A stretch of 64,000 nt of DNA, from NCBI GenBank assembly GCA_010405405.1, contig MU004231.1, forward strand, positions 732,153 through 796,152, given 5' to 3'. Below, piece after piece: positions 3,605-54,539 of the stretch. The position numbers and the translations under genes are program-made. Source of the DNA: Microthyrium microscopicum. Its lineage: Eukaryota. Numbering within the stretch: the first letter of the stretch is position 1; every line of letters starts with the position of its first letter. The notes beneath the pieces are model-generated. The model made no database searches, was not told the origin of the DNA, and saw nothing but the letters and a program-made list of their open reading frames with translations.

Positions 3605-6600
3605 GTTCTGCCTATTTTGCGTATTGAGTATAAAGACCGGCCTCCTTGATAGAGTATGCTTCAGGGCCATCTTTCATCTACCTCAGGATTAACCTGATCT
3701 ACCAGACAAACTCCGAGGAGTTCCGTTTCGACCACACGCGACACTACATGTATCGCTCTATCCCATGGTTTCATTGGTGATTACTTGCTCCTCTCCAATA
3801 TTGGTCTCGTGTCTTTCCCGAGGTCGCAACAACGTCTATTGCGAGCTTGGATATACAAGCAACGCATCTCCCGTACCTTTCTCGTCATCATCAACAAGTG
3901 ATCAGCTGCAGGGGCCATGATATCATTGAAGCTGCTATGATGGTGACTGATAGCCATGTCAGAATCACATCGTACACGTCTGCAAGTACTTGATGAATGT
4001 TACTTGGAATTGGAATCTTGGTAGACTCTTGGATGGTATCAATTGATACATTCCTGGCTATGCCTTGTTTTCTCTTTCAATCTCGCCCGCTGAAGCTTGG
4101 AAGCACTGTATGTACTCAACACCCCTGTTTATATATCGTGGTTGTTACTTTGCGGGGCCCACCTGGGCAAGAACTCCCTCAAAATTGGGAAAGAGCAAAC
4201 AGACCAGAAAGGACCCGTCAAGCTCGACTAAAGTGAGGATTAATTTACATACAAGGTGAGCTCGTAGCGTACTACAAATGGGCGTTTTCGATATACCCGT
4301 ACGCCAATCTGAGCAGCAGTCCTTCTCTTCAGATGTTGTGCACTACACTGCCCAAAATGTTAGACCATGAGTTATCTACGATCAACGAGGTGATGGACGC
4401 AGCGCACTTGCTATTCCTATTGATATAAAGTATTAGCCGCTATACTAGATAAGTAGCCTTGAATAGCACGACTTGGTACATAACTAAAACTTATAAGAAT
4501 TAAAAGGTTATTTTTGTGCTCTAATATGCATTGCGACATCGGCGTAGCATAATAATAGTAGAGCTTCATCATGATCTTGACAATCCCTGAACAAACCACC
4601 CAATGGAGTTGTCGAATAAACATGCGGCTTGATGGGCTTTGTAATATCTATGTCGCTCTACAGTAAAGTCCCAGAGGCTGCTAAAGTAGCCGTCTAGTGG
4701 TAGCATATCATGTCCCAAACTTACAGCTTGATAACTTCGCCAGAATACGAGGCTTCTACACGGGGCAAGTTCAATCCTACCCAAACACCTCCTAGTACGT
4801 CCCACGGCGGCTGAGTTACGTTAAGGCGAGTGATACACTCCCTATGCAGCGCGCATCAGCCAATAGTCGTACAAGATGGTTTCGCGTAGTTGCATGCTCT
4901 TTGTCCGCCGAGAGGTTGTTATGCTGTATGTTCCGCCGAGGGGGTTATTATGCTGTATCACGCAACCAGCAGGAACTGATTGCCAGAAAGAAAGAAAGAA
5001 ATCAGATGATATTGGCCAATTCTTATTGGCCAAAACCTACCACTGTCGATAATGTCGTTGCGGACGGTTGCACGGAGCCTGGTGTTGTGGGTGGGAATCG
5101 GATGGATTCATGGAATCTGGACGATGTTACTGCATGCTGGATTGAGAGGATTTTCTACACATGGTGTGATTGCGTATGCATACGCCCCGTTGCGATGTTG
5201 GGTTTTGTTGCTTCGGAAGGATTCTGGAAGCTTTTGCGCAGGTGTCAACGTGTTGTCTTCCCACGAGATGTCATTGGCGATCGCTTGGTAAATCCATCTG
5301 CAGCAAGTATTCAGAAGGAAGTTGATCGCCGCTCCGCAAGGTACCAATGATGAACTCCTATAAAGAAATGACGGACATGACGGGGGCAAGTGAAGAGAGG
5401 TTGAGTTTGGGATACGGCAGCATATTCCATTTGCCGTTGAACGCCGTGTTCAGCACACTTTGTGGCGCTATAGTAGTGACGGTATTGGAAAGCTGTTTGC
5501 GATCCGCCTCACGATCTTGAGACTTGAGCAAGTCCGGCGCTTATATCACTCATGGGCAGTTCTAAGCGAATTTGTGCTCCCCAACGCTGAGTGCAAAGGG
5601 AGAACGCATTCAGCAAGAGACACGAACGCGACGACATCGTGGTGTCCGCGCCTCGAAGAAAATGCTCGTTCACACCCCCCAGGCTGCGCGCTTGTTCAAA
5701 TCAATCACCCACTCACATTATCCAATCCAAGCGAGGAGCTGGCACATGGTTGCTCAACGTGAAACGGCTACACATCTGAAAGGTGAAGATAAACCCGATC
5801 GCATGGTTTGATAGTTTCGGTTGTGAAATTGGATTGACAGCACTATCCCAAATCCCACGAGGTTCCTCAAGGCGCGGCCCGTTGGTACTGTTTGCTGGGA
5901 TCCCACACAGCCAAGGCAGTATTGTAGGCGTGTGGTAATAATAAGCATGAGGAGAGTCAAGCATTGGTGTGAGACTGTGGCAGATATGACCCGCTAATCT
6001 AATGTGGCCCAAGAACCCCTGAGCGAGCTGGATTTAAATCATTTGAGGCCGTGATCCATGGCCCAAGAGTGACGGTTGGAATAAAGGGCGAGGAGGGCTT
6101 GGGCTGACGTGCATCATTTCAGATTATTGGAAACGGCAGAAGCAAAAGCAAGTCAAAGACTCTGAAGCAGTTCAAGATTCAAATGCAGGAAGCGTTTGAG
6201 AGCGGTACTGCGTCAACAAGTTCGCTTCTGCGTCAAGGAAGCGGATAATAGACGAAAGCGCGCGGTGAGCGCGAAATGTCGCTTGAAAGATTGAGTGGTG
6301 AATCCTTCTGCCGCTTTGATCCCTTTGTGCATGCAAAGGGAATGAGTTGGCCGCAATGCCCCAAATCCCTCACCGTAAACTTGTTAGATTATGCAGAATA
6401 TACATGCAATCAGGGATGCACCGCAGCAAATCTGTCCTTCTGACCATGGCACAATGTCTGCGCCAACGGCGGGCGAGCTGAGGAGTCGGGCCCGTTTGAC
6501 AATTGGACAGTCAATTGATTCCGCGGCAGGACTGCACCATAATTCGCGCCAGGCGGCCACGGCGGCAAGCAAGCGACACATAAAAAGAGGAAACTGGCGC

Positions 6601-15394: not shown

Positions 15395-16598
15395 ATCTCT
15401 ATATTGCCGCCGCAGCATTGAGGCGAAGCAACATGCCCATTGGGTGGCGGACTTGGCAAAGATGCATACGAGCTGTACAAAGGGGTACTTCGAGTAGTTA
15501 AGGACCTTCCTGGAGCTGACCATATTGTGAGATCTCTAGCAAACACACCGTTGTCAGAAAGATCGACAACTTTTACCGCTATAAGGATAGTCACCCATTT
15601 TCACCAGCACTTCTCGACGCAAGCAACTGAGATCATGGGTCAGATTAGCTACTCACCATTGAGCGTTGAAAAGAAGGAGATCCGGCTATTGACTCTCTTT
15701 TCAAAACCTACCGTTATTGAGGACGCGCGCGATGCTGCAAACAAGGCCCTGGCAGATCTGAGCATCTCAGGCGAAAGTCACCCTGCGGACGGCTTCCAAA
15801 GCCAGGACGAGTCAAAGCCCTGCGGCGGGTCACTTACGATAGTTTCATTGAACGATAACCCCGAGTACGAAGCATTATCTTACGTATGGGGAGATGAGAA
15901 CCTGAAATCTACCTTCATTCTTGACGGCGTGGAGGTCAAAATCACCGAAAACCTTGCCGTTGCACTTCGACACCTGGAACCGACCGAAAAACCTCTAGTA
16001 CTGTGGATCGATGCGGTAGGTACTCTTACAACCGCTTTGGCGATGCGAGTGGAACATATATGCTGATTAATGGCACAGATATGTATAAATCAATCCGACA
16101 ACGTAGAGAAAAGCCATCAAGTCTCGCAGATGAAAGACATATATTCAGCCGCAACTTCCGTGACAGTATGGCTTGGTCCTTTCGCCGATGGCAGCGATTA
16201 TGTCATGTCCCAGTTTGAGAAGTTTGATGAGAAGTTTGACGTCTTTTCAGACTCTAATACAACTACCCTGGTTGGACTCGTGCGCCAGGCTATGGAAAGC
16301 GGCTTGACGACTCTAGAGCAAATCTGTTCACCCGTCGTCAAACAAACTGCCGCACAAATTGAGCAGTTGTTCAATCGTGAGTGGTGGTACCGTGTATGGG
16401 TGAGTAGAGTAGCCCTTGTACAAAGACTGTTTCTTCTAATATGTTTATTCTGACGAAGTCTAGGTTTTGCAGGAACTGGCCGTAGCGAAAGAGGTCGTTT
16501 TTGTGTGTGGTAACAAAAGAGTGAGTTTAGACAGACTTGAGCGCGCAGATGCCACGTTTGTCAACTTCATCTTCGCTCTGCTATTAAATGTGCATGAA

Positions 16599-16695
16599 GG
16601 GGGAGTAGTACAGTGGTAGTACTTGCGATCTCGCGGCAGGCCCTACCTGTTTGAGAATCCGCAGGGCACGGGTTCGATTCCCGTCTCCCCCACCA
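16599..16695 (+). ncRNA. tRNA-like cloverleaf head (internal Pol III promoter); isotype not assignable
   Basis: Acceptor stem GGGGGAG/CTCCCCC + A + CCA. D stem GTAC/GTAC with A box TAGTACAGTGG (16606-16616). T arm ACGGG-TTCGATT-CCCGT with B box at 16671-16681. Anticodon arm extended into a long hairpin. Confidence 0.85.
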
Positions 16696-17800
16696 CCCCA
16701 AAAAGGCAATCGTTACTCGCTTTTAAAGCCACGTTCACCCCTTTTTAGGGAAGGTTATCCTTCCCTTTTTAGCAGGTGTGGAGGACGAGCTACAGCTCTT
16801 TTTAACACGTCGCGGAAGGTGCAAATTTTTGTATCACGTGACCGCTGTATGCAGCCACAAGATCATCCTTGTCGAAGCCCCACCAACAATAACGGACTAG
16901 CGTCAAAAATCACATGATTGGAAACCAGCCACATGGCACGCAAAGCCACACACAAAAAGCCACAACATCGCCGAAGCGCAGCAAATTCGGCATGCCGAAG
17001 CCAATTCTTTTACGGCTCTTGGCAATTAGATCGGACGATCGGCCCTGGCTTAGTAAGACCGAAATCCCAGCCGCGTGAGGCAAGGATCGGACCGAACGAC
17101 ACGGCAGAAACTCACGGGATCTAGGGACACCACGGCTCGGTAAGTACGGTGCCCGCGGGTCGGCAATATGGCGCTATAGGAAAAGTCGGCAGACTCGGGG
17201 GAGGTGACCCAGAACACGCCGGTCCGAAGGACCCTAGATCTTGGCTTGAAAGCGAAGCACAGCGTAGATGGATAGCTCTTAGCAGACTGTTGGCGCTGCC
17301 TCGGACTTGGTATTGCGGCACGAATGGAGGGATCTGACATAATAATAAGGAAGGAATCTTGGCCCCTTGGGGGACGACAATATTGGCAACTTTAAAGAAC
17401 TTGAAGCAGTGGACTGAATGGAAGAACAATAATCCGTAACGGATACTGGCCTAGAGAGGTGCCGCGGTTGGATACTACTCGGAATTCGGCTCTCCTGACT
17501 TACCAATGCTTCTGTGGCTTGGGAAGCCGATGGGGCTTAGCATAGTATTAACGGCCTTGGCATGGATCGGCCTACGGAACACGATAGTGGGGTTTTCCCT
17601 TATATAGTTAGCGCCTCGGTTTGCTGAACATGTAGGGGTTAGCCGAAGCCGGACTAGGCCTTAGGCCTGGAGTGAGTTAGCTCGGCTAGATTCGGGTAGA
17701 TTGGCTGATTAGATAAGGGTTTTTACCCGCTTATTAAGAGTAGCGTCTGCATAGCCCATTAGCGTAGCTGAAAGACAATAAACAAGATTCAATAAAAAAA
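16599..17800 (+). mobile_element. tRNA-headed SINE-like non-LTR retroposon, 1202 bp
   Basis: 14-bp TSD taaatgtgcatgaa (16585-16598, 17801-17814). 5' tRNA-like head with A and B boxes. 3' end ...gacaataaacaagattcaataaaaaaa. Confidence 0.92.
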
Positions 17801-19332
17801 TAAATGTGCATGAACGAGGAGTCGCCTCTAGCAGGTCTATGCCGAAGCTCCCTTTCAATTATGCTGCTCGCAGGATGCTATTTCAAAGGCGTAAATACCA
17901 AAACAGACTAGAAGGTTACTCGAGTTGCACTTTAGGAGCCTTGCTGCAAGAGCTGTACGGGGTTGAGGAATGGACAAGCAGTCTACAGACATCTAGAGCT
18001 GTGGACAGGATCTACGGACTACTTGGTATAGCGCAAGATACAGAGGTACTAAACCTAGTTCCAGACTATTCGAGGGACACGGAGTGGGTATACACTGATG
18101 CTGCTGGTAAAATGCTGCAGCGCGGTGAGTTTGGGCTTCTTTCTCTGGCTCAACACGCAACACAACCATCGTTGTTACCCTCCTGGGTTCCGGATTGGCG
18201 TCTTCCTATGAAGGCACCCGTTGCCAAAAGATCTTTATCGCCAGTCTTTCGTCCATTTGGCAACATAGAAATCGTCTGCCCGTCTCCCCAACCAAACGAC
18301 TTCAGAGTACTCGAAATTGCCGGAACTGCCGTGGATGAGATTGAACAGGTAGGATTACCTCTCGGTTACAGTTACCAGCAAACCACGGCAGAAAACTTGC
18401 AGCATGTCCAATGTTATCTCTCTCAAATACAAGCCTTCTGTCGTCAATCTGCTTCATTAGCTACAGGCCTCTACGGCGACTCTGATAGATGGATGGAAGA
18501 TGCTTTCTGGCGAATACCTATTGGAGACTTGGCAAATCCGACCCCAGGCCAATACACTATGGTGAGAGCAACCGAGACAAGTTTCACCTACCACCAAAGT
18601 CTACTAAAGGTCATCGCGGTTTCGAATGAAGCTAAAGACAGCACTGTCGGAAACGAAGAGCCTACGAAGCTGGCTGCTGTTAGATCTGCCGAGTTCGGAA
18701 AGTACGAACAATATCTTTTTGGAGTTGTGAACAAAGCTGGACAAGCGCCATTCATAACCAAACGAGGCTACGTGGGTATTGGGCCGCCAAATATGGCCGC
18801 TGAAGACATTATTTGTATATTCTATGGAGCACACGTGCCGTACGTTCTTCGACCTGTGGAGGACGGGCGGTACACTCTTATCGGAGAGACCTATGTCTAT
18901 GGGATCATGGATGGCGAATTTATGATAGACAGTCCAAAGAAAGATATTTTTCTTGTTGTATGAGCTTCAGAAGTTGGTCTTAAAGTCTTAAATCGAGTCT
19001 TCAGAGTAGGAATGAACGGGATTAGATAGGTGACAAATACAATGGAACGAAGTAATCTGAGAAACACGCGAGTCATATATTGATCGTCAACCCTCAGTAT
19101 GTCATTACTACTGAATGAAGCATAGGTATGTAGTGGACCGTTAGTGCGGGAAGGAGTTTGGAACATTCTAAGCACAATCATGAAGCTTCCCCGCGCCATC
19201 AAGATGCTAAACACTTCAACTGTTGAACCTGAACCGTTCTCGACCTTTGGCATCAAAATCAACGGTGATGAGATATACGTTCCTACCAGCAACTAACCAC
19301 TTCACAAAAACCGAAGAAAGAGATAGGATACA

Positions 19333-51290: not shown

Positions 51291-54200
51291 CCGTAGAAAT
51301 CCGACAACATGTCCGCAAGGTCGAGGGCGCTGGAGAGGCGTTTTTAGGGCGGTTTCTGTAGAAATGCCCCCTATAGTAATTTTGCAGTAATCTATTTTTA
51401 GAACGCTAAAAGCTATAATGGCGTTCCTATCCCTAAACCTACTGAACACCTAAAATTGAAGCTATATAATGATATCTTTATTAGTACAAAATAGTAAGAA
51501 TAGGAAGATGTAGTATTATATATAAGTAATGCTTTTAAAGCGTGTTTTTAATGCTAACATAGAGTAGATGTTATCTATGATTTCTATCGCTTATCTATAT
51601 TTGCTATAGGCTAAGAATACTGCCTAATTTAATGTCTAATCATTGATTTGAGTAGTCCTATTGATGATAGAATATCGCTATTAAATACTAAAGATAGATA
51701 TTTTGGCTAGGTCGTTTAATGAGATAGAGGTTAGATTGAAGAAGCCCTAGATGCTAGAATGCTAGTGTCGATATTAGTAATAAAGAGGTAGTTAGATACT
51801 AAATTTTAGTAGGATAGGACTCTTTATATCTACTAAGTAATCCGTTTTAGGGGAGGCTATTGGACGACTTAATTGCCTATTAATTTTAGTAAAAATAGTG
51901 GTAATACTGCTTAAAATCCTTTAGCGAGGGAACTTAGTAATTAGGCTAAGGGTTAGGCTGAGGGTTAGGCTAAGGGTCAGGGTATAGTAAGATAATTAGT
52001 AATAATACGGGTATTAGGTCGTTTATATATAGATTTTGCTATATATCTTCTATTAATTTAATGAAGGATAAATTTACTATAGCTTCATCTTCGTTAATAG
52101 GTAGAGGAATATAACCCTTAACTTCTTCTTTATTATAGTATTCCCTACTATTATTATTACTAATATCTTTAGCTTCAATATTAGGGTCGTTTATCTCTTC
52201 TTGCTCTTTATCTTTAACGGCACTAAGAATATTAATAGATTCTTGCTTCACTACACGCCAGTTCAAGAAGTCTAATAATAATATTAAATCTTTAATGCTA
52301 ATATTATTCTTCTTGTTTGTAATAACATTTTTAGGCATAGTATTCAACCCCGTAGTAATAAACGAGCGTCTAATTATTAGAGAGCTATTAAAGTAAATTT
52401 GTCGCTAGGCCTTTGTTATAACATAAGTTATAAATACTTAATATTAAGATATATTCTAATTAAGGGGGTCTAAATCTTTGATATTTATATCCTTAAAGCA
52501 CTCTTATGCATAGAATGTAGAGGCCTATAGGTCTTAAAGGTTCTTAACGAGTTATTTAAATAGCTTATTTACGCTAACATTAAGCAGTTAGATTTTAGAT
52601 GTATAACTAGGAGGAACGATAGTAATAACAATATTGTAGTCTTTATACCATTACTTAACGATAGCCGTTTTATAAGCAAAGAAGGCGTCTATAATAAGAA
52701 TAGAAGGATTGGAAATACATATTATAGATATTAAAGAAGTAGAAGATATTAAAGATATTAAAAAGGTGCAAGATATTAAAGAGGTGCTAGTAGGGCTTGA
52801 TTTTAGAAGAGATGTTATTAAATTAAGCTCTAGATCCCGTAGTTAGTGCTAAAATATTTCCATTTTAGGAAGGTACGAGAAAGGAATTACCTAAAGTAGA
52901 AGGAGACGGAACATCTTTAGACCGTTTAGACCCCTCTAAAGGCTCTTTAAGATTCTCTACCGCTATATCTAATCCTCTAAGATAATAATATTCTAACCAC
53001 TACTACATAATATCCTTATTATTCTACGCCATCTTATTGTATTTAATAAACACCTCCTAGTTATAGAACGTACCCTTAGTCTTTAAGATACGACCTTTAT
53101 CTTTATTAGTAGTACTATAGAAGATAATTAGTAGTGAGATTTAAAGCGTGCCATTAGCTGTTATTACTAACATGACCGTTATTTAACGTTTATCATCTCT
53201 ATCTTTATAAGTATAAATCAAAACCGTCTTTAACCCTACATTTACTAAAGTATAATCGCTAAAGTTATAAAAAAGCATTAGCGTCTCGTCTATATTAACA
53301 ATTTGATAGGCAGACACTATAGCTTTTAATTCTTCATCTAATACTGTATTAATATTTACTTAAAGACTACTAGCTAGCGCTATGGCCTTATAGGTCACAA
53401 GTTTTATAAATCTAATAAGATTGCTACATTAAGAAACTTATTCTTTAGGCAGTTTCTAAGCTACGTAGGTTACCTTTCTTCGCACAATCCTAAAGCGCTT
53501 TAGGTAGTTTTAAAGCTAGCCCTATAAGAATTAATAAATCGCTAGTATCTCTTAAGCCTTAATTTTAGCAATATAAATATAAGGGTACAACGCCTTAGCT
53601 TTCTAAAGCAATTAATAAGTACCTATAGACCTATTCTTAGCTCGCTATTCATAGTACTATACATAAACGGCATCTTTAAGTCTAGGAAAGTGCTCCCTCT
53701 ATATATCTAGACGCTCAACTCGACGGCTTACATGCAAAATTAACCATAATAACTAGCGCTAATGCCACCACCATCATACAGTTCTCTTATTTAACGCGTA
53801 GTATTAAGTAGCTTTAATAGCTATACCAGTACACTACTATTAATTAGTATCCAGACATTTATACTATTTTATGCCCTCTAATAGTAAGTATCACTATTCA
53901 TTAGGGGATAGCATATAACGCTATTATAGTATCTACGCTACTACTTCTATTTATAGTTAAACTAAAGCGGTGTTAAACAACTTAGATTTAGGAGCGATAG
54001 TAACGACCTTCTAAAGATTAAATCCCTTACTCTTTTTAGCATGTAGTTTTGCCCTTAAAGGACGTAGATAATTTATCCCTATAACATTTAAGTCTAGTTT
54101 AGCTAATAACGCTCATTATAATTAGCGTGCTTCTTTTAGTGCCTTTAGCATAGTTATAAATATCGATTTTGATGTTTTTTAATTAGATTAAGTCAAGATA

Positions 54201-54539
54201 ATAGATATTCAAAGCTTTTAATTAGATTAAAGAAGAAGATAAAATTCTATAGCAAAATCTACATATAAAGTTCTATATAAGGCTTTAGCCTAATTATAAT
54301 AAATATACCCCTATCGTCAAAATAACAATATTCTGCTCAAAGCAGGTTAGCTTATCTTTAAAAACGTCAAAATCTGTCAAAATAGCTTGCTTAGCGCTGA
54401 TATTAGGGCGTTAAAAACGGATACTACCTAAATTACTAGCGCTACATTTTCGACGCCCCCTAGCGCGCTATCCTCCTCAACACCCTGTTTTGGCTAAATC
54501 GATTAGCTACCTTGCGGACATGTTGGTAGATTTGTACGG
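51291..54539 (-). mobile_element. Full-length, heavily RIP-mutated Tc1/mariner-superfamily (pogo-like DDE_1) DNA transposon, 3249 bp
   Basis: 30-bp TIRs ccgtagaaatccgacaacatgtccgcaagg / ccttgcggacatgttggtagatttgtacgg (26/30 match), TA on both flanks. Minus-strand remnants IVNIDETL and ILIIDAF...IVPPSYTSKI*LLNVSVNKLFK. Strong TpA excess and abrupt AT shift. Confidence 0.92.

Follow-up and report, generated by a model that had tools for sequence, protein, structure and literature searches.

SINEs are usually defined by a size of roughly 80–700 bp. The fungal elements listed in the part of PMC5063351 drawn on here range from 140 to 900 bp and include two from Magnaporthe, Mg-SINE with 472 bp and mgsr1 with 800 bp; in the same text, AfuSINE2 of Aspergillus fumigatus is given target-site duplications (TSDs) of 4–14 bp, and a CCA is annotated at the end of its tRNA-related part. 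MINE of Magnaporthe grisea consists of fusions of WEIRD, Mg-SINE and MGL, and identical 14-bp direct repeats flank a tripartite, LINE-made chimera (excerpts of PMC2104539). The non-LTR retrotransposons L1Tc/NARTc of Trypanosoma cruzi carry an HDV-like ribozyme at their 5′ end, according to the cited parts of PMC3185411, PMC3383444 and PMC4035085.

Here we describe a retroposed, non-coding, tRNA-headed, non-autonomous element that interrupts a HET-domain gene in a 64-kb window, by which we mean the whole stretch of DNA that was analysed. With a probability of about 0.82, we regard window positions 16599–17800 as a young copy of a LINE-type non-autonomous retroposon family; the copy is full-length, and the fungus, a Dothideomycete, is most likely Microthyrium microscopicum. 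Its length of 1202 bp lies outside the usual SINE size range. Like Mg-SINE, mgsr1, Foxy of Fusarium oxysporum and AfuSINE2, as far as the cited part of PMC5063351 describes them, the element opens with a tRNA-related head in which A- and B-box-like motifs lie, continues with a non-coding body and closes with an A-rich 3′ end; here too TSDs vary in sequence and copy number is low to moderate. As in AfuSINE2, CCA closes the tRNA-related part. It is set apart from the descriptions of those fungal SINEs by its 1202 bp, by an array of T4–T5 runs behind the head and by a 25-nt insert in the anticodon arm. The likeness to MINE, within the excerpts of PMC2104539, lies in a composite of apparently unrelated RNA copies in one pair of direct repeats, in fungal LINE machinery and in the transcription of many members. 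Unlike MINE as described there, the composite here is a multi-copy family with a common 5′ end and 5′-truncated members, and its 5′ module is tRNA-like, in contrast to a copy of a LINE or of WEIRD.

Among the papers listed for SINEs and for the species, screened by title and abstract opening, none describes the family, which is apparently undescribed. The preliminary description had proposed an undescribed, long SINE family. A tRNA-headed retroposon family for which we found no description does emerge, but the SINE label is called into question by the T runs and by the 1202-bp length. To call the element the best candidate for a new system was an overstatement: the family is new, but its kind is well known. 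It adds a retroposon family to a barely studied order of Dothideomycetes.

The insertion and the interrupted HET gene

The 1202-bp insertion lies between perfect 14-bp direct duplications. The left copy, TAAATGTGCATGAA, stands at 16585–16598 (+), where the host frame reads it as ..L N V H E, and an exact-match search placed the right copy at 17801–17814 (+). In all 64 kb of the window these are its only two exact occurrences, against an expectation of 0.03, and two matches were obtained in 0 of 100 shuffles. Exact direct 14-mer pairs 50–5000 nt apart number eight in the window, compared with a mean of 1.14 and a maximum of 5 in 50 Markov-1 random windows. Because exact direct 14-mers are not unique in the window, the weight of the TSD lies in its coincidence with other features.

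The element starts at G1 of a tRNA-like fold (16599) or one base earlier: A16598 can be assigned either to the element or to the TSD, and other copies align from 16598. The 3′ end (17777–17800, +) carries AATAAA at 17777 and again at 17791, followed by a run of seven A (17794–17800). A repeat search revealed neither an inverted nor a long direct repeat between the termini of the element. Its 3′-terminal 101 and 141 nt fold no better than shuffles (z –0.45 and +0.41, respectively), and thus no LINE-recognition hairpin is evident there. The perfect TSD and the AATAAA with a short A-tail had both been noticed in the preliminary description and are confirmed; of its claim that the element starts exactly at G1, the fit of G1 to 16599 stands, but A16598 leaves one base ambiguous.

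The upstream part of the HET-domain gene (15635–16598, +) begins with an ATG at 15635 and comprises 279 codons before the insertion, interrupted by two GT..AG introns at about 16016–16078 and 16400–16463 (+). The downstream part (17815–18963, +) consists of 382 open codons and a stop. The element splits exon 3 at a codon boundary in sense orientation, and the HET frame now ends six codons inside it, giving 285 aa as against a predicted 661 aa. Both TSD copies translate N-V-H-E in the host frame; removing the element together with one TSD (1216 nt) fuses ...FALLLNVHE with RGVASSRSMP... in frame. Homologous HET proteins are colinear over the insertion site to within a few residues. This in-frame join and the colinear homologues bear out the proposal that the element sits inside a HET gene and that its excision restores the frame. 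The locus represents a fresh knock-out of a HET gene (allorecognition/cell death) by an element of this type. The public gene model P0001 (374 aa) begins at the first Met downstream of the insertion, which splits the model and has misled the annotation.

The interrupted gene is also seen in a public run (X4) that was identified as RNA from its spliced contig. In this contig (record 9) both HET introns are removed, after which exon 3 continues into the element as far as 17035 with 0 differences. Independent DNA and RNA contigs (records 1, 8 and 9) agree on the insertion junctions, again with 0 differences. As to coverage in X4, the HET read-through contig is the only one that spans the head (16599–16927) and the body has additional contigs; gaps in this cover carry no evidential weight.

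Head, T runs and body of the element

The tRNA-like head (16599–16695, +) sits within the inserted repeat and inside an exon. Its acceptor, D and T arms are intact, the discriminator is A16692, CCA is encoded at 16693–16695, and the best call is tRNA-Glu(CTC)-like. The Rfam tRNA family (RF00005) matches 16599–16692 over the full model (1–71) with 52.5 bits (gathering score 29, E-value 5.2e-10), with an anticodon loop of 32 nt vs 9 in the model. When introns were allowed, ARAGORN called tRNA-Glu(CTC), with an intron-like insert of 25 nt where tRNA introns usually lie and CCA after the discriminator; its drawing lacks base 26 and has a variable loop of 3 nt. Run without introns, the program returned the tRNA type as undetermined. 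The insert (16634–16658, +) follows position 37 of the anticodon loop and makes a long extended anticodon hairpin. The predicted cloverleaf has a folding energy of –42.8 kcal/mol (z –3.07), and 2 of 200 shuffles fold equally well. Taken together, the Rfam score over the full model and the Glu(CTC)-like call uphold the tRNA head that had been recognised by inspection. The Rfam search revealed no ribozyme family in 16400–18000.

The consensus sequences of the Pol III boxes are TRGCNNAGTGG for the A-box and GGTTCGANTCC for the B-box. Reading the head against them by eye, we found an A-box-like motif, TAGTACAGTGG, at 16606–16616 (+) and a B-box-like motif, GGTTCGATTCC, at 16671–16681 (+).

Directly behind the head is a cluster of T runs resembling an array of Pol III terminators (16721–16830, +), with T4 at 16721 and T5 at 16742, 16766, 16799 and 16826, within a repeated CCCTTTTTAG-type unit. 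On the sense strand the element has five runs of at least T5 and eight of at least T4; five (T4–T5) fall at element positions 123–232 and three lie beyond. They are enriched over chance, as 2000 shuffles average 0.44 runs of T5 or longer and 0 of 2000 match the observed counts. A near-identical copy that comes from a run of a different study (X6 record 23, differing at 2 of 321 nt) retains these runs.

The body (16696–17776, +) is non-coding, without a Pfam family, a protein relative or another Rfam family. The longest stop-to-stop open reading frame (ORF) in the element is 113 aa, and none of the 11 element ORFs, all of which were scanned, gave a Pfam family above threshold. The search for protein relatives covered one ORF, the longest; its sole match among 1.84 billion proteins (E-value 1.3e-6) was a 9-kringle repeat protein aligned by repetition, and was rejected.

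Copies in public sequencing runs and their decay

The evidence for a family comes from contigs of one sample (runs X1 and X5 being the same sample), of the RNA run X4 and of the low-depth run X6. Contigs were compared with a 2801-nt stretch spanning the element and its flanks, and they give neither copy number nor RNA ends. DNA contigs 80–100% alike to this stretch numbered 131 in X1 and 181 in X5. At likeness of 99% or more, 95–99%, 90–95% and under 90%, the counts were 23, 15, 50 and 43 in X1 and 32, 31, 66 and 52 in X5. Summed depth in X1, which is not a copy number, rose from about 111–114 on the flanks to 260–2094 over the element; the rise is confined to the element. At a single 3′ place one variant is carried by up to 13–15 different contigs.

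Several of these contigs show where copies begin. AT-rich unrelated sequence stands directly before 16598 in five contigs and before 16600 in one; we take these as at least six further copies with a common 5′ end. Another copy spans 17615–17792 only and has its own 14-bp TSD, AACATTAAAAATGA, on either side, and is thus 5′-truncated; more loose contig ends lie before 16933 and 17737. Both summed depth and variant counts peak at the 3′ end of the element. The dispersed copies amount to two independent insertions, with 14-bp TSDs of different sequence, and at least six other distinct 5′ flanks. The preliminary description had expected a multi-copy family with distinct TSDs, and the 131 and 181 contigs, the several 5′ flanks and the separate TSD of the truncated copy agree with it.

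No joint skipping the element, as an empty site would give, was seen in any of the four runs; the flank-bearing ones may all be one strain, so the result does not imply fixation. Metagenome scans gave 0 matches to the head-body junction (30-mer) and 0 to the 3′ end (25-mer with one R), which has no bearing on the genome of the fungus itself. Within the 64-kb window, blastn at word size 9 returned the self match and chance matches of up to 25 nt, and no further copy. An AT-rich block at 51.5–54.5 kb was considered as a RIP-degraded copy and rejected: RIP-tolerant local alignment scored 33 and 37, and 20 shuffled controls had a mean of 35.8 and a maximum of 42.

Other copies differ from the window copy by C>T at 95 places and by G>A at 89–92 places. 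Among the variants listed, CpA accounts for 8 of 13 C>T changes and TpG for 7 of 11 G>A changes. To judge from these base changes, most sibling copies show RIP-like decay. The window copy has a GC content of 0.515 and borderline RIP indices of 1.08 and 1.06. It looks young because its TSD is perfect, the HET halves are still open and, unlike in most siblings, RIP degradation is absent. These same features support the earlier suggestion of recent activity, and the family is probably still active.

Mobilisation and the template RNA

LINE-type target-primed reverse transcription characteristically leaves TSDs and 5′ truncation, and from these we infer that the element is mobilised in trans. A resident LINE, of the Tad1 clade or another, would supply the endonuclease and reverse transcriptase that act on the element RNA, with reverse transcription primed from the target at a nicked chromosomal site. 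Copying at the nick would give rise to the 14-bp target duplication, and incomplete copying would leave a 5′-truncated element. The window has 70 ORFs of 120 aa or longer, and in the 32 that were scanned no reverse-transcriptase or endonuclease family was present. The tail does not bear out a poly(A)-dependent route: it is short here (A7), and a second copy leaves the shared sequence after 17792, with CAAC in place of A7.

As the template we prefer, at roughly even odds, a Pol II transcript. RNase P, for example, could cut at G1 of the tRNA-like fold and so fix the 5′ end of this transcript at the head; the 3′ end would lie near the two AATAAA.

The element could instead be a canonical tRNA-derived SINE, transcribed by Pol III from the A and B boxes of the head over the whole 1.2 kb and copied by a LINE with a matching 3′ end; we consider this doubtful. 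The head fits the full tRNA model, A- and B-box-like motifs are intact by comparison with the consensus, at least six other copies start near tRNA +1, where tRNA-type SINEs begin, and both TSDs and 5′ truncation are found. On sequence grounds, the box-like motifs and a 5′ end near +1 would suit a Pol III start equally well. So-called SINEs of fungi reach 800–900 bp (mgsr1 and egh1, in the cited part of PMC5063351), but 1202 bp exceeds every fungal SINE in the Introduction of that paper. In addition, the SINE label implies a full-length Pol III transcript, and the internal T4–T5 runs, enriched over all shuffles and kept in the near-identical X6 copy, argue against one. A plain 1.2-kb Pol III transcript is the less likely template because the terminator-like array stands directly behind the head; T5 may be a weak terminator in the host fungus. 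The combination of tRNA head, terminator-like array and 1.2-kb body makes the family a test case for whether all tRNA-headed retroposons must use full-length Pol III transcription.

It is conceivable, if unlikely, that the tRNA-like head is an RNA-processing module and not the Pol III promoter of the element. Outside Pol II transcripts, such as the HET read-through RNA, would then be cut at G1 by RNase P, which would create a uniform 5′ end. CCA is an anti-determinant for tRNase Z and, encoded directly behind the discriminator as it is here, would protect the head-body junction against this enzyme. The 3′ end would be set by the AATAAA signals of the element itself, and the T-run array would confine Pol III transcription of the head to an RNA of about 125–230 nt. 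If this is true, the tRNA-like head would play the part that 5′ HDV-like ribozymes have in some LINEs, in a SINE-like element riding Pol II co-transcripts, and its use as an RNase P signal would give a non-autonomous element a new means of defining its RNA. The parallel with L1Tc/NARTc, as portrayed in the parts of the papers cited above, is possibly one of function only: with a structured module at its 5′ end, the element could free its RNA from a host co-transcript, and a co-transcript that runs into the element is seen here. The modules differ: where L1Tc/NARTc have a self-cleaving ribozyme, the element has a tRNA-like fold that is a candidate substrate of RNase P.

Very improbable is a one-off chimeric retro-pseudogene, immobile once formed, for which a LINE reverse transcriptase would have jumped from a polyadenylated cellular RNA to a CCA-ended tRNA. 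U6-L1 and MINE-type elements are chimeras of such a kind. A small RNA at the 5′ side and another RNA at the 3′ side within a single TSD would fit this origin, as would the CCA encoded after the discriminator, as from a mature tRNA template, and there is a fungal precedent with 14-bp repeats (excerpts of PMC2104539). Against it, the same head-body junction recurs in many copies with several distinct 5′ flanks, and the 25-nt intron-like insert would be missing from a mature tRNA; a chimera of this sort is plausible solely as the origin of the family founder.

There is next to no likelihood that the insertion is an assembly artefact or arose at the DNA level, be it as a MITE, as another DNA transposon, as a solo LTR or as a small LTR element that includes a tRNA-like part (non-autonomous LTR elements with such parts exist, cited part of PMC10886601), as the element ends without terminal inverted or long terminal direct repeats, the 14-bp TSD exceeds the lengths typical of DNA transposons and LTR elements, and independent DNA and RNA contigs confirm the junctions without a single difference.

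Insertion boundaries and the interrupted HET gene

The 14-mer TAAATGTGCATGAA has exactly two occurrences in the window, 16585-16598 and 17801-17814 (chance expectation 0.03; two matches in 0 of 100 shuffles), and its two copies enclose the 1202 bp of the element (16599-17800). The perfect 14-bp target-site duplication (TSD) proposed in the preliminary description is thereby confirmed. Since the window contains eight exact direct 14-mer pairs lying within 5 kb of each other (mean 1.14, maximum 5, in 50 random Markov-1 windows), the duplication is decisive through its coincidence with other features, not alone. There is a one-base ambiguity at the 5′ boundary: A16598 may be part of the element, since the alignment of other copies begins at this base. 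The 3′ terminus, AATAAACAAGATTCAATAAAAAAA, comprises two AATAAA motifs, 10-24 nt past which the element ends, and an A7 run adjoining the right duplication, matching the AATAAA and short A-tail described earlier.

The element splits exon 3 of a HET-domain gene. Ahead of the insertion, two ORFs carry a HET domain according to Pfam (E 4.2e-8 and 1.6e-16). The downstream 393-aa ORF has 46 relatives (best 39% identical, setting aside P0001, the window's own 374-aa gene model), which are mostly 520-680 aa long and carry PF06985 (HET) and PF26639. In 11 such HET proteins the fragments before and after the insertion align to consecutive parts; in P0028, a homologous HET protein, residues 2-45 of the upstream fragment align to 234-277, and residues 25-386 of the downstream fragment to 295-646. 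The proposed location inside a HET gene holds. The exon structure is fixed by record 9, a contig of the RNA run X4, in which two GT..AG introns (63 and 64 nt) are spliced out. From the ATG at 15635, the HET frame runs for 279 codons up to the insertion and resumes for 382 beyond it; the present frame meets a stop six codons into the element, giving a product of 285 aa. Both copies of the duplication read N-V-H-E in the host frame and, when the insertion and one duplication (1216 nt) are left out, the two halves are joined in frame, as had been claimed for excision.

P0001 (374 aa, window 17839-18963) starts from the first Met downstream of the insertion. Thus, the public annotation splits a retroposon-interrupted HET gene and treats its downstream half as a separate gene.

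Other copies and their substitution pattern

Contigs from public runs were placed on window 15800-18600, using the two DNA runs of the best-matching sample (X1 and X5), the RNA run X4, and X6, a low-depth run from a third study. This region attracted 131 contigs in X1 and 181 in X5, with likeness classes from 99% and above to under 90%. Each HET flank was represented by one long contig with 0 differences in both DNA runs. Summed depth in X1 was 111-114 over the flanks and 260-2094 over the element, a figure that cannot be read as a copy number. Single places close to the 3′ end have the same variant in as many as 13-15 different contigs. Depth and contig data show that the element exists in many sequence variants. 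No second copy lies within the 64-kb window.

Unrelated AT-rich sequence directly precedes position 16598 in five contigs and 16600 in one; because the upstream flanks of these six contigs are unrelated, there are at least six further copies with a common 5′ end. One locus, found in X1 and X4, contains 17615-17792 only, with ...GATAACATTAAAAATGA ahead of the copy and CAAC-AACATTAAAAATGA-TTTATG... after it, CAAC standing in place of TAAAAAAA of the window copy. It is a 5′-truncated copy flanked by a 14-bp duplication of its own. Further truncated copies are suggested by additional loose ends that precede 16933 and 17737 (X4). These copies bear out that the element belongs to a family.

The truncated copy at 17615-17792 and its AT-rich flanks appear in the RNA run with 255-nt loose ends on both sides; the locus seems to be transcribed, or X4 contains some DNA. 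In X6, labelled as another organism, four element-only contigs (depth 2.4-4.5) fall on 16636-17624, the best with 2 differences in 321 nt, and the HET flanks are absent. Either the family is present in another organism, or X6 holds the same fungus at low abundance with only repeats assembled.

C>T changes, at 95 places, and G>A changes, at 89-92, predominate when other copies are compared with the window copy. Among the 40 differences listed (248 more lie beyond them), C>T falls at CpA in 8 of 13 cases and at CpG in 5, while G>A falls at TpG in 7 of 11, CpG in 3 and GpG in 1. These changes in sibling copies are the signature of repeat-induced point mutation (RIP). At 0.515, the GC content of the window copy exceeds the 0.473 of the window as a whole; the copy contains 76 CpG, and its RIP indices are no more than borderline (TpA/ApT 1.08; (CpA+TpG)/(ApC+GpT) 1.06). 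It looks young because its duplication is perfect and both HET halves are still open, and in this sense the recent activity suggested earlier is upheld. No empty site was seen in the contigs, and the runs that carry the flanks may all be from one strain.

A further class of differences was observed in window 17150-17700, where sibling copies carry C for a window T at 37-43 places (X1, X4, X5) and at 22 places in X6. A>G occurs at 6-11 places only, hence the T/C differences are strand-asymmetric; among those listed, 7 of 11 lie in TpG in the window copy and 0 of 11 in TpA. This pattern differs from the RIP pattern of opposite direction and could reflect single-strand C>T changes at CpG sites in the lineage of the window copy.

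Element type, tRNA-like head and transcription

The element has neither terminal inverted nor long direct repeats and no ORF above 113 aa. No Pfam family exceeded threshold in its 11 ORFs. The longest ORF alone was searched against 1.84 billion protein representatives, yielding a kringle-repeat artefact as the single match and no true relative. Because terminal repeats and coding capacity are lacking, 14-bp duplications are independent and 5′ truncation occurs, the anatomy is that of a non-autonomous non-LTR retroposon, copied at its target by the endonuclease and reverse transcriptase of a LINE. LINE-made chimeras of the ascomycete Magnaporthe grisea are likewise flanked by identical 14-bp direct repeats (PMC2104539). 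Scanning 32 of the window's 70 ORFs of at least 120 aa revealed no LINE, and element motifs gave 0 matches in two metagenome scans.

Over its whole length, the Rfam tRNA model RF00005 aligns with nucleotides 1-94 of the element (52.5 bits, gathering score 29, E 5.2e-10). No other Rfam family matches, and the element's start at G1 of a tRNA-like cloverleaf stands, within the one-base ambiguity at A16598. The anticodon loop region spans 32 nt, compared with 9 nt in the model. ARAGORN assigned no tRNA type in default mode; allowing introns yielded a cloverleaf resembling tRNA-Glu(CTC), in which 25 nt are inserted behind loop position 37 and discriminator A is followed by CCA. The head is predicted to fold (-42.8 kcal/mol, z -3.07) into a cloverleaf whose anticodon hairpin is long and extended, a stability equalled by 2 of 200 shuffles.

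Fungal SINEs listed in the Introduction of PMC5063351 measure 472 bp (Mg-SINE), 500 (nrs1), 700 (Egr1), 800 (mgsr1) and 900 (egh1). At 1202 bp the element is longer than all of these, as the preliminary description of an unusually long SINE implied. The SINE label itself holds in part: the tRNA head and A- and B-box-like motifs favor it, while the length and an array of T runs do not. In the titles and abstract openings of the papers listed, we found no account of Microthyrium microscopicum transposable elements and, among those listed on SINEs, tRNA-derived elements or Dothideomycetes retrotransposons, no description of this family. The family is apparently new and its kind well known. Its length and terminator-like array are unusual, which does not yet imply a different mechanism.

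T runs act as the Pol III terminator, four being enough in mammals and five to seven being required in yeasts. The sense strand holds one T4 run (element position 123) and four T5 runs (144, 168, 201 and 228) inside a repeated unit of the CCCTTTTTAG type, with three further runs downstream. The totals, five runs of T≥5 and eight of T≥4, were never reached in 2000 shuffles (means 0.44 and 2.13), and the runs are retained in the near-identical X6 copy. With runs of these lengths, a head-started Pol III transcript should mostly stop after 125-230 nt. Pol II passes the head and transcribes no less than 437 nt of the element, as a spliced HET mRNA contig shows. Given the T-run array, this passage and an end 10-24 nt past two AATAAA, we favor a template made by Pol II whose 5′ end would be fixed at the head (probability about 0.5). 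That Pol III read-through makes the template is a less likely alternative: the A- and B-box-like motifs are intact by the general consensus, the element starts at about tRNA +1 and T5 is possibly a weak terminator in this fungus, but the enriched array lies directly behind the head. A poly(A)-dependent route is disfavored by the tail, which is short (A7) in the young window copy and absent in a second copy.

In the boldest and rather unlikely reading, the tRNA-like head may be an RNase P substrate through which co-transcripts would be trimmed to G1. CCA is an anti-determinant for tRNase Z, and the one encoded here would prevent this enzyme from cutting at the head-body junction; the T-run array would restrict whatever Pol III makes to a small RNA. 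The putative analogue would be L1Tc-type elements, which are freed from co-transcripts by 5′ HDV-like ribozymes. CCA is not unique to this family, because it is also annotated after the tRNA-related part of AfuSINE2 (PMC5063351, Table 1 legend).

Other features of the window

A 580-aa ORF encoding a protein disulfide isomerase shares 96% identity with a protein assigned by NCBI and UniRef to Microthyrium microscopicum, ahead of matches at 77% identity or less whose named sources are mostly other Dothideomycetes; the window most likely derives from M. microscopicum or a very close relative. An AT-rich block at 51500-54500 (GC 0.27-0.33, about 0.47 around it) has about 99 stops in each frame and resembles a repeat degraded by RIP; sequence comparison ruled it out as a copy of the element family. 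A 184-aa ORF at 4796-5347 (+) has a borderline Pfam match (E 7.8e-6, 26.4 bits, cut-off 26) to the picornavirus core protein 2A family, Pico_P2A, which is odd for a fungal ORF. Exact 17-nt direct repeats occur at 22222-22238/22281-22297 (spacing 59 nt) and at 61434-61450/61636-61652 (spacing 202 nt); further similar sequence after the latter pair suggests a local duplication.
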